From a virus (taxonomy: Duplodnaviria > Heunggongvirae > Uroviricota > Caudoviricetes), in IMG/VR virus record IMGVR_UViG_2531839178_000020: a stretch of DNA of 20,618 nt; one strand, given 5' to 3'. Numbering within the stretch: the first letter of the stretch is position 1; every line of letters starts with the position of its first letter. Shown piece by piece: positions 3,001 to 6,000 of the stretch. A program made the position numbers.

Positions 3001-6000
3001 AAAGTCCGCGATGGAGAGCTGATTGCCAGCATGGATACATTCATACGGCTGGCAGAAAGAGCGGGGTATCAGATAACAGCACCTGCTCAGGAGGAAACCA
3101 GTGACATTAACAGCAACTCGAATTCCTGAGTGGGTCCACCAGCAGGCGTTGCTAGTCCTGCGGCGGTACAGATGCCGACGTATATTCCCGCATCGGATAC
3201 AGCGCAACGGATATCTCAGTCTGAAGGTTAACCGTCGCTGGCGGCTGTTATCGAAAGACGACGGCCGGAACTGGGAAGTAATGAGTCATGAACGTTATTC
3301 GGGGGAAATAAAGAAATGATCGACAACCGCACCGCCAGCGCCAGCGCCAGCGCCATTGACCAGGCATTACAGAAACATGATACACCCGTCGGCCCGTTAT
3401 TTTTTGTAACACGCCACGGAAGAACAAAAAAATGCCTCACCCGAAAAACGGCAATTCGTTACCTGGCATTCTTTATGACCACCCGCGCTTTTGAACGTTC
3501 AGGATTCCGACAACGCCATCCTGACAATCGTTTTATCTTCAACGGGAATGAGATATGGAAACGTGGAGAATCAACCACAGAGTATACCCGCGCACACCAG
3601 CGAACAATCAGACGACTGCGCAGACTCATCGCCAGGAAACAGTATACAGAAAAATGGTTCAGAAAATATGACACATGGAGCGCCGGATATTACGAACTGA
3701 TGGCAACAAAACCATTCTGACGTAAACGAAATTAACCATGACGCAATTAAATAAGGCAAGCCGAATACATCAGGAGGACCATGAACATTTATTTCAGAAT
3801 AGTTATATCACTGGCAATTATCGCATGTATTTACGGATTAATCGTTCCGGCCCTCATATCAATGAAGGATACGGTAGCAGTGATTTCTGGCTTTGCTCTG
3901 GCGTGTCTGACCCCGCCCTGCATTTATGCCATTTATAAGGGTCTTTCTTTCCCCGGGAGGGAAAAATGAAAAAACAATTGCGCTTGTTTTCGCGGTCAGT
4001 CTGGCTGTCTTCGGACTTGTAGGTTGCGATCGCGTTGAACCAGGTAATGTGGGTATCAAAGTCAACAAACTGGGCGACGACAAAGGTGTCGGTGAGGTGG
4101 TCGGTGTTGGTCGCTACTGGACTGGCTGGAATACTGAAGTTTACATTTTCCCGACCTTCAAGCAAATGAAGACCTACGATGAACCGTTCAGTTTCCAGAT
4201 GAGTGACGGCACAACCATCGGCTATCACATCGGCGTGGCCTACAAAGTTGATCCATCCAAAGTTACCACAGTCTTTCAGACTTACCGCAAAGGCGTGGAT
4301 GACATTACCGACACTGACCTGCGCCAGAAAATTGCCGACGCACTCAATCGGCTGGCCAGCAAAATGACCACTGACAAATTTATCGACGGCGGCAAGTCTG
4401 AACTACTGGATGCCGCACTTAAAGACATTCAGGAAGAGATGACACCCATCGGCATTCAGGTAATGAGCCTCTCTTATGTAGATAAACCGGAATACCCTCC
4501 AACCGTTATCGACAGCATTAACGCCAAAGTCACGGCAAACCAGAAAACCCTGCGGCGCGAACAGGAAGTCAAGCAACGTGAAGCGGAGGCCAACATGCTA
4601 CGTGCGGAAGCTGCCGGACAGGCTGATGCCATTCGAACAAAAGCCCAGGCAGAAGCCGATGCCATTCGTTTACGCGGCGAAGCTCTACGCCAGAACCCAG
4701 GCGTCATGGAGCTGGAAGCCATCAACAAGTGGAACGGTACACTGCCGCAATACATGACCAGTGGTGCCAATACACCATTTATCCAGATTAAATAACTTAT
4801 ATGCCCGGCAGGCCGCCGGGCTAAGGGAAATGCAGATGAACACCCAGAATACTCAACCGCAAATAATGAACTATGACCCGAATCTGACGTCATGCGGACG
4901 CATGGCAAAACAAACCGTTCGATTAACTTTCGGACTATGGGAATACCGCGAAACATTCGAAGTTACTGTCGGCGGCAATCTGACCGGACTGGATGTTATC
5001 AGTTGCGCTATTGAAAGCCTGTACGCAACGCTGCCTTATGAAGAAGTCGAGGATGAGCGCACAGGGGAAACAGATATCATGGCCACCATTAATATTGGCG
5101 AACTGATATGTCAGGATGAAGACCTGTCCGGAGAGCTCTGGCTTGCCGGGATGCTTATCTCAGCAGAAATTATCAGTATTGAACCCGCTACAAACATACG
5201 GCTCTGAAGTTCTCACTATTCAGAGAGCAGGAGAAAAAATGTTCGCTTTGATTAATCAGGGACAACTGTATACCGACAGTGCCGGTTACCCGGTAAAAAT
5301 TATTCGCTGCATAAACAACACTGTGTTGTACAGAAGAATGGATGGGCGAACACAGTCAGTAAAAATAAACGATTTCAATGAACTGTTTGAACGGATCGAT
5401 CACCAGGAATACCGACAAATTCTGGCAGAAACAGAGCAGGAAGCTCATCTGAAAAAATTACGGGCCATGAAAAGGAAGTAAAGAATGAATAAAGCGTTTG
5501 AGCTATGGGTACGCCAGCGTTACGGCAATCGCTATGACCTGACGCGAGATGTTGACGGTTTCTACTGTCGTGAAATTGTGAAACGAATGTTTGAAGTGTG
5601 GTGCCACTGCCGTGGGCTGAGTGTTGTGTGAGGTAATGCATGGGCAATGTGATTCAACTGGCTCCCAATGAATGGGTTTGTGAAAGCGTTCTTATCGCAA
5701 TTACCGGGCTCAAACCAGGCACAATTCTCCGAGCCCGGAAAGAATGCTGGATGGTAGGAAGAGAGTATATTCACGTATCACCAGACGGTAATCCAAAGCC
5801 ATCCAGCGAATGTATGTATAACAGAAAAGCAATAGATGCCTGGGTCTCTTCAATGAAAAACAAACAACCTGGGTGATTTAATGCCATGAAGTATGTAAGC
5901 TCGTATCGCTCTTGGGCGTCTGGAGGTATCAATGGATAAAGTCAAATATCCAACAGGCGTCGAAAACCACGGTGGCACATTACGCATCTGGTTTAATTTT

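Follow-up and report, generated by a model that had tools for sequence, protein, structure and literature searches.

A hairpin gene and an SPFH lipoprotein gene in a prophage remnant

We analyzed a 20,618-nucleotide (nt) stretch of viral DNA (Caudoviricetes; IMG/VR record IMGVR_UViG_2531839178_000020; hereafter the window), focusing on two adjacent plus-strand genes. One encodes a protein of 62 amino acids (aa) with two predicted transmembrane (TM) segments, here called the hairpin, and the other a lipoprotein with an SPFH (stomatin, prohibitin, flotillin, HflK/C) domain. They lie in the remnant of a phiP27-like prophage integrated at yecE of Shigella boydii. SPFH proteins build membrane cages, and for most bacterial members neither the client nor the purpose has been established. 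Phage SPFH lipoproteins have repeatedly been noted in genome papers as unexplained, and their role was called unclear in papers of 2021 and 2026 (PMC8540360, PMC13239085). We find that they come with an obligatory, sometimes fused, two-TM partner. A preliminary description of the locus had proposed a translationally coupled pair of a two-helix membrane protein and an SPFH lipoprotein with a charged C-terminal region, lying in a prophage accessory region where lambdoid phages typically have exclusion or defence cargo, and a plausible candidate for superinfection exclusion or envelope-stress sensing. Both genes are present as described, apart from a flaw at the SPFH start, with the following features.

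3771-3776, plus strand: AGGAGG, read from the sequence as the Shine-Dalgarno of the hairpin gene, 5 nt ahead of the ATG at 3781
3781-3969, plus strand: hairpin gene, an open reading frame (ORF) for a predicted 62-aa two-TM inner-membrane protein (TM1 approximately residues 4-26, TM2 approximately 32-52)
3847-3873, plus strand: conserved, predicted periplasmic turn P23-A-L-I-S27-M-K-D-T31 of the hairpin, from an alignment of phage, bacterial and fused members
3926-4795, plus strand: open frame holding the SPFH lipoprotein, 289 aa if read from the in-frame ATG upstream, against 276 aa for the ancestral product from 3966
3966-3969, plus strand: ATGA, the ancestral SPFH start over the hairpin stop
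3969-3974, plus strand: A6 run where relatives have A7; this 1-nt deletion frameshifts the SPFH gene just past its start
4016-4027, plus strand: lipobox L-V-G-C, with the Cys codon at 4025-4027 and Asp at +2
4031-4591, plus strand: SPFH/Band_7 domain (Pfam PF01145), residues 36-222 of the 289-aa ORF
4499-4693, plus strand: Ala/Glu/Arg-rich helix of about 65 residues (DSSP helix 177-241 of model m199090cf43f7), corresponding to the helix that forms the cage wall in SPFH assemblies
4727-4747, plus strand: C-terminal motif K-W-N-G-x-L-P, with W254 and G256 invariant and P259 nearly so in sequences down to 30% identity

Families of the two proteins

The SPFH protein matches Pfam Band_7 over profile positions 2-176 of 176 (106.8 bits vs a cut-off of 23.6, E=1.7e-30) and PHROG 200 ('lipoprotein', E=1.7e-112). 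Because Band_7 is its only domain, with no protease or transposase domain, we reject the old annotations 'serine protease' and 'transposase fusion protein'. In the AlphaFold2 model (predicted local distance difference test, pLDDT, 74.9) the SPFH alpha/beta fold is followed by the 65-residue helix. Foldseek returns full-length matches with probability 1.00 to PHB1/2, erlin1/2, HflK/C, stomatin, flotillin and QmcA-YbbJ, and also to major vault protein (E 1e-12 to 1e-7). The nearest solved structure by sequence is HflK (E=3e-4). Constraint on the mature protein is very strong (dN/dS 0.02-0.06; 0.02 against phiP27).

An exhaustive search of 1.84 billion representatives yielded 3,056 SPFH relatives, 215 of them at E<=1e-30. 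The ancestral N-terminus, MKKTIALVFAVSLAVFG-LVGC, consists of a basic region, a hydrophobic region and a lipobox of the form [LVI][ASTVI][GAS]C, and its MKK start is out of frame in the window. Among 144 full-length family representatives (50% identity, from the best 150), 113 have the lipobox Cys and the remainder mostly have an uncleaved N-terminal TM anchor. In two members on contigs of about 110 kb, a phage-plasmid size (P0105 and P0108), Tyr replaces the lipobox Cys (GIIGYDRV), and these copies would not be lipidated.

Hydropathy of the hairpin gives two TM segments with a five-residue turn between them, and the basic residues at both ends predict an N-in/C-in topology. The family motif is G-x3-P-x-[LM]-[IVLM]-S-x-x-[DS]-[ST], in which Pro23 is invariant and Ser27 is conserved in at least 90% of the aligned sequences; a Gly in TM2 is kept in about 70% of members. 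The hairpin matches PHROG 1130 ('membrane protein', E=1.9e-23), as do 17 of 18 diverse hairpins, and the PHROGs class of the family is 'moron, auxiliary metabolic gene and host takeover'. It has no Pfam (E<=0.01) or NCBIfam family. The exact sequence occurs on 294 contigs, and pN/pS values of 0.26-0.33 indicate purifying selection. The gene is always annotated 'hypothetical' or left out. It is unannotated in phiP27 (NC_003356; L001 4006-4194), as is a weak candidate in the crAss-like phage cr128_1 (L154 966-1178, E=0.0085). Gene callers easily overlook the partner gene.

Two TM segments with a predicted N-in/C-in arrangement also fit a holin or pinholin, which raises the alternative of a lysis-timing device: the hairpin would be a lesion protein that the SPFH cage sequesters or gates, providing antiholin-like control or lysis inhibition. 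The size of about 60-70 aa and the basic C-terminus agree with this, and the conserved Gly of TM2 fits helix packing. Eukaryotic stomatins regulate channels, and a stomatin-aquaporin complex is in the list of PDB matches. However, the match to holin Pfam families is at chance level (one member, E=0.044). In the loci examined the pair is never in a lysis cassette but in early regions, and the chromosomal version in Dyella, described below, has no phage lysis context. We regard this alternative as improbable.

The two genes form a pair

We recovered 84 close loci from phage records, E. coli genomes and IMG/VR. In all 84, the end of a small two-TM ORF overlaps the SPFH start by 4 nt. This holds across both of the divergent hairpin types, the 62-aa type of the window (type A) and a 67-70-aa type found in P2-like phages (type B), which are about 20% identical and have the turn motif in common. 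For distant loci, a hidden Markov model (HMM) built from 23 hairpin members was searched against 7,627 six-frame segments of 59 loci with SPFH identity down to approximately 35%, covering Enterobacterales, Sutterella, Rhodanobacteraceae, Cupriavidus, Dependentiae, Methylumidiphilus and Bacteroidota. At E<0.01 there were 54 matches, all on the same strand and either immediately 5' of the SPFH gene or fused with it. These make 53 of the 59 loci positive, and no match at this threshold was found elsewhere in them. Co-occurrence beyond the window, which the preliminary description had left to be checked, is therefore widespread.

The hairpin is part of the same polypeptide in 17 of the 144 SPFH representatives, at the N-terminus in 16 and at the C-terminus in 1. 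In those N-terminal fusions whose sequences were inspected, the order is hairpin, linker, signal-peptide-like TM, lipobox, SPFH. With this order, the C-terminus of the hairpin must be cytoplasmic and the SPFH domain periplasmic. The only C-terminal match is in P0133 (344 aa; hairpin at residues 275-331, SPFH at 4-260), which has a different topology or is an annotation artefact. An enterobacterial 347-aa fusion (P0002; L144 5001-6044), seen in two independent samples, came about by a small change at the gene junction. It is a mutational in-frame fusion of the normally separate pair, and the Rosetta-stone argument rests on the older, diverse fusions. A gene with a Tad2-like (anti-Thoeris-like) domain lies 700 bp downstream of P0002 (L144 6729-7304).

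The pair stays constant while neighboring genes differ among phiP27-like, P2-like (P88) and HK97-like (Fraca) phages. When the window is compared with P88, nucleotide identity climbs from background level to 95% precisely at the codon for the lipobox Cys and drops near the stop. Based on these sharp borders, the segment for the mature SPFH protein is an exchanged mosaic unit. We hold with high confidence that the hairpin and the SPFH protein are a true pair and that their family identity is secure.

The start of the SPFH gene is disrupted in the window

The preliminary description read the ATGA at 3966-3969 as translational coupling, while noting that the frame would need repair before cloning. 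The overlap is present, but in the window the SPFH ORF is in a different frame from the ATG at 3966, and translation from that ATG would stop after 18 codons. In the closest relative the run behind this ATG is A7. The MKK start is intact in 84 of 84 related loci, 99%-identical copies included. Thus the A6 run in the window, set against the intact start of relatives, indicates that translational coupling is ancestral and is broken in this copy. The sole in-frame ATG is at 3926, without an obvious Shine-Dalgarno sequence, and the 289-aa product from it is identical to WP_001115940.1 of S. boydii. One contig carries exactly this sequence, compared with hundreds for the intact 276-aa allele. In IMG/VR, exact matching recovered the A7 allele 8 times and the A6 allele 0 times.

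Beyond the A-run, the SPFH frame is uninterrupted and gives no sign of relaxed constraint against phiP27, so that the lesion is recent or is a homopolymer sequencing error. Given the A6 deletion, an IS2 element that abuts the operon upstream and a split integrase gene, the copy of the module in the window is most likely inactive. Two points weigh against this: if the A6 run is a sequencing error the copy is intact, and the 289-aa product from the ATG at 3926 might still be exported. The window copy itself is thus most likely a decaying relic of little interest, and the interest lies in the module.

Programmed or phase-variable slippage at the A-run was considered and rejected, since P88 has no long A-run at this site and run lengths differ among phiP27, Fraca and the lineage of the window. 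The finding of A6 on one contig only and not in IMG/VR also disfavors slippage, and we take the change to be a sequencing error or a homopolymer indel of the ordinary kind.

Distribution among phages and bacterial chromosomes

Using tblastn, full-length SPFH homologues were found in 417 phage records. The hairpin is beside the SPFH gene, or one gene from it, in N4 (Enquatrovirus N4, VEc25), N4-like Xanthomonas phage PB119, rV5-like phage 4MG and Burkholderia phage phi1026b. The same is true of LUZ24-like phage TL, phage-plasmid-like Cyrano, jumbo phage fENko-Kae01 and roseophage DSS3_MAL1. Erwinia phage phiEa21-4, like cr128_1, has a weak candidate (E=0.11). Obligately lytic carriers include N4, PB119, 4MG, a LUZ24-like phage and a jumbo phage. 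The module is in temperate phages too (P2-like, HK97-like and phiP27/Shiga toxin (Stx) phages), and the family is common in prophages of Shigella, Shiga toxin-producing E. coli (STEC) and Salmonella. Among Proteobacteria, and probably Bacteroidota, both lytic and temperate phages have the module. A 108-kb Yersinia pestis contig (L095) also carries it. The term 'band 7' in the phiCbK paper refers to gel bands and not to the protein.

In phages the pair is placed in early operons. In phiP27 and Fraca it is in the leftward early operon, which runs from the repressor gene towards xis-int, and in P88 it is in the P2-type cox-to-A early operon. The pair of phage TL is downstream of an annotated sigma-70 promoter. 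In the N4-type phage VEc25, the gene just upstream (L085 907-1221) matches Pfam GP17, 'superinfection exclusion gene product 17' (E=1e-55).

Some of these observations fit the earlier proposal of accessory cargo, namely an exclusion or defence moron that is expressed in the lysogen and blocks phage DNA entry at the inner membrane or senses envelope damage. The pair lies between early genes and xis-int, the position of sieB- or rex-like cargo in lambdoid phages, its flanking genes vary between phages while it remains constant, and a ParE-like toxin gene is two genes upstream in the window. The PHROGs class of the hairpin family and the GP17 neighbor in N4 are also consistent with such a role. 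However, the module is common in obligately lytic phages, lies inside early operons of temperate phages, and is syntenic on the core chromosome in Dyella. No PADLOC model matches any of seven local proteins (PADLOC-DB 2.0, hairpin, SPFH protein and five neighbors, 0 families at E<=0.1), and the literature searched gives no link of SPFH proteins to anti-phage defence. Between 2900 and 6000 of the window, we found 0 sigma-70-like promoters vs 4.1 expected by chance, and no canonical plus-strand terminator, which leaves a self-contained moron cassette unsupported. We therefore consider the cargo framing disfavored and a defence moron unlikely, although a part of the module in superinfection exclusion or envelope stress is conceivable.

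The frequency of the family in prophages of Shigella, STEC and Salmonella could instead point to lysogenic conversion, with a surface or vesicle lipoprotein acting on the animal host. The precedent is PM0222 of Pasteurella multocida (OAZ06802.1), a 25-35 kDa prophage-encoded HflK/C-like protein that is reported to occur in outer-membrane vesicles, to trigger Toll-like receptor (TLR) 1/2 signalling and to contribute to virulence, with attenuation when it is deleted (PMC9872710). The comparison with PM0222 is made by description, and TLR2 stimulation is generic for bacterial lipoproteins. Furthermore, Asp at +2 predicts retention in the inner membrane, and the family is present in environmental lytic phages and in soil Dyella. 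This role is very improbable.

Approximately 27 species of Dyella and other Rhodanobacteraceae (L103-L142) have a chromosomal pair in conserved synteny, e.g. L119 848-4813. The genome scan used a single peptide pattern from 7 sequences, and the 53 loci that resulted are biased towards Dyella and do not estimate prevalence. In these genomes the pair is divergent, across an intergenic region of roughly 350 bp, from an operon of a blaI-like repressor gene (Penicillinase_R, E=3e-25) and a blaR1-like M56 peptidase gene. Downstream are a conserved unannotated 369-aa gene, ribonucleotide reductase where the locus reaches that far, and, in about 10 species, hemerythrin genes. Based on this synteny, the module is also cellular, and its adjacency to blaI/blaR1 suggests that it is possibly under the control of an envelope-signal sensor.

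Relation to known SPFH systems

HflK and HflC, whose cage modulates FtsH, are the nearest named relatives by sequence (NCBIfam E 5e-6 to 5e-5). The scores for TIGR01932, TIGR01933, NF008181 and NF008259 are 25.6, 22.9, 18.9 and 18.7 bits vs cut-offs of 134.4, 159.4, 660 and 427. The protein is thus not an orthologue of these housekeeping proteins, nor of a characterized morphogenesis protein; orthology of either kind is what the preliminary description had named as refuting its proposal. Shared with HflK/HflC (PDB 7vhp, 7wi3, 9cz2) are the SPFH domain with its long helix, the full-length structural match, the predicted position on the periplasmic side of the inner membrane, and an adjacently encoded membrane partner that presumably acts together with it. 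In contrast to HflK/HflC, each locus inspected, like that of the window, has a single SPFH gene rather than an adjacent hflK/hflC pair. The anchor is a lipid where HflK/HflC have an N-terminal TM helix, the place of FtsH as partner is taken by a 62-aa hairpin, and the module is phage-borne.

These likenesses allow the reading that the phage cage mimics HflK/C. By capturing host FtsH, displacing it or competing with HflKC, the cage would shift the turnover of CII/CIII-type regulators, LpxC, sigma-32 or SecY, thereby tuning the lysis-lysogeny decision or host physiology. Similar speculation has been published (PMC4936722, PMC8540360), and the early leftward operon position is analogous to that of lambda cIII. 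Low scores relative to the equivalog cut-offs, the single SPFH gene and the lipid anchor all argue the other way. The model matches prohibitin and erlin equally well, phages without a lysogeny decision carry the module, and the conserved hairpin is left unexplained. Thus, HflK/C mimicry seems an unlikely explanation.

Operons of SPFH and NfeD genes (QmcA-YbbJ, PDB 8z5g; YqiK-YqiJ; PH1511/PH1510) also combine a scaffold gene with a small polytopic membrane partner. The hairpin differs in having no NfeD domain or oligonucleotide/oligosaccharide-binding (OB) fold: there is no match to PF01957 at E<=1 among 18 hairpin family members, and 62 aa is too short for an OB-fold. Whereas the SPFH domains of the stomatin-type SPFH1/2 groups face the cytoplasm, that of the module is exported. 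A 2009 survey reported NfeD partners for SPFH1, 2 and 5 only, and none for SPFH3, 4 and 6-12 (Hinderhofer et al., PMC2636767). The best whole-chain Foldseek matches (E approximately 1e-12) are to the prohibitin PHB1/2 and erlin1/2 cages (PDB 9o9z, 8rrh, 9vvg, 9o9u), in which the SPFH domain is likewise non-cytoplasmic. These are eukaryotic, TM-anchored hetero-oligomers with 15-19% sequence identity to the phage protein and without a hairpin partner.

The module was also compared with phage superinfection-exclusion proteins. T4 Imm and Sp, HK97 gp15, P22 SieA, T5 Llp and phi80 Cor are small inner-membrane proteins or lipoproteins that exclude phages by altering the envelope, and some are early lytic genes. 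No family-level similarity to such proteins was detected using PADLOC and PHROG labels, and none of them is an SPFH protein. The claim that the pair is not a described system therefore holds: it has no PADLOC match, the hairpin has no Pfam or NCBIfam family, and we found in the literature no functional study of this SPFH family and no mention of its partner. The proteins themselves are already catalogued in PHROG families and by routine SPFH annotation. The novelty lies in the dedicated partner of the SPFH scaffold, which is of a new type. This turns a vague annotation into a two-protein system that is approachable in tractable models (N4, P2-like P88 and Stx/phiP27-like phages).

A putative periplasmic cage with a hairpin partner

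The explanation that we favor overall, with moderate confidence, is a two-component inner-membrane module in which a periplasm-facing SPFH cage and its dedicated hairpin partner act early in infection. The SPFH lipoprotein would be exported and lipid-anchored on the periplasmic face of the inner membrane. By the +2 rule of E. coli, Asp and Tyr at +2 are inner-membrane retention signals; the residue is Asp in the window and Tyr in N4. These residues, the fused relatives, and the uncleaved TM anchor of most members without a lipobox make this location probable. The long helix could then assemble a closed cage-like ring that fences off a membrane patch, as in HflK/C, prohibitin, erlin, stomatin and QmcA. 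From the fold and a single-chain model, we lean towards cage formation.

The hairpin would be made in fixed proportion via translational coupling and would serve as the dedicated TM partner, client or anchor of the cage, comparable to NfeD with stomatin-type proteins or FtsH with HflK/C. Its sole periplasm-exposed segment, as predicted, is its most conserved part. The pair is expected to be transcribed with early or middle phage genes and to act on the envelope of the infected or induced cell. The presence of the module in lytic phages, and its early-operon position in temperate ones, make conditioning of the infected-cell envelope its most likely effect. The benefit may be an inner membrane that is stabilized or insulated during infection, perhaps including a block of later DNA entry, but this role is a guess that we consider doubtful.

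Several observations weigh against the favored explanation. The hairpin was undetected in phiCbK, HRTV-19 and Ochrobactrum phage OC. The +2 rule is specific to E. coli, and many family members have Ser or Thr at +2. The AlphaFold2 model of the fused P0002 has pLDDT <50 in the linker and TM3 and says nothing on contacts between hairpin and SPFH domain. Finally, the mature SPFH domains paired with the type A and type B hairpins are 95% identical in spite of the divergence of the hairpins, so that any specific contact must rest on few conserved residues.

A more far-reaching version of the two-component module, which we offer tentatively and think rather unlikely, is that the pair is an undescribed, near-universal phage envelope device. 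The periplasmic SPFH cage and its two-TM partner would seal or gate a patch of inner membrane early in infection, excluding superinfecting DNA or neutralizing membrane-targeting abortive-infection effectors, and Rhodanobacteraceae would keep the cellular ancestor under BlaI/BlaR1-type envelope-signal control. If true, phage-encoded SPFH proteins would have their first assigned function, and SPFH partners a new class that is independent of NfeD. Were the module to control membrane integrity or DNA entry, it would bear on phage therapy, through superinfection and lysis timing, and on the choice of clients by SPFH proteins.

Prophage setting of the window

The gene order around the pair is 76-aa ORF, ParE-like toxin, PHROG 1886 protein, hairpin, SPFH, DUF5406, DUF4222, excisionase and integrase. 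Further features of this region are as follows.

13-354: IS3-family transposase fragment
614-1648: IS630-family DDE_3 transposase
1629-2914: IS2-like orfA/orfB
3101-3319: ParE-like toxin gene (Pfam ParE_like, E=7e-18), two genes upstream of the SPFH module
4803-4821, plus strand: GC-rich 7-bp stem-loop GCCCGGC-AGGCC-GCCGGGC just after the SPFH stop, without a T-run (RNA fold -17.1 kcal/mol, z=-1.78) and not called as a terminator

The block of insertion sequences (IS; window 1-2914) is directly 5' of the prophage remnant. IS2 ends at the very start of the 76-aa ORF (2899-3129) and supplies its first codons, where relatives begin MANLSPVS. Because IS2 abuts the operon upstream, the operon is cut off from any prophage early promoter. 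The phiP27-type integrase is in two pieces, the arm-binding N-terminus at 5932-6273 and the catalytic part at 8737-9735. They are split by an IS3-family element (orfA 6330-6698, orfB 7891-8709) that is itself broken by an IS30-like transposase gene (6655-7806), indicating nested insertions. In the S. boydii genome of the window the module is probably a silent relic. The phiP27-type attachment site is recognizable by a yecE (DUF72) fragment at 9762-10163.

The ParE-like gene overlaps the upstream 76-aa ORF, a possible antitoxin gene, and the two look like a toxin-antitoxin pair (2899-3319), for which PADLOC gave no match. The PHROG 1886 protein (3316-3720) is longer by ASAS (MIDNRTASASASAIDQ...) than the 130-aa version of related loci (MIDNRTASAIDQ...), a 12-nt tandem repeat expansion. 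Directly after the yecE fragment is a second phage-like region, which begins with a large serine recombinase gene (10213-11736). It includes minus-strand tail genes, Dit-like (11733-12527) and tape measure (12670-14793), and HNH endonuclease genes at 17204-17491 and 20094-20618.

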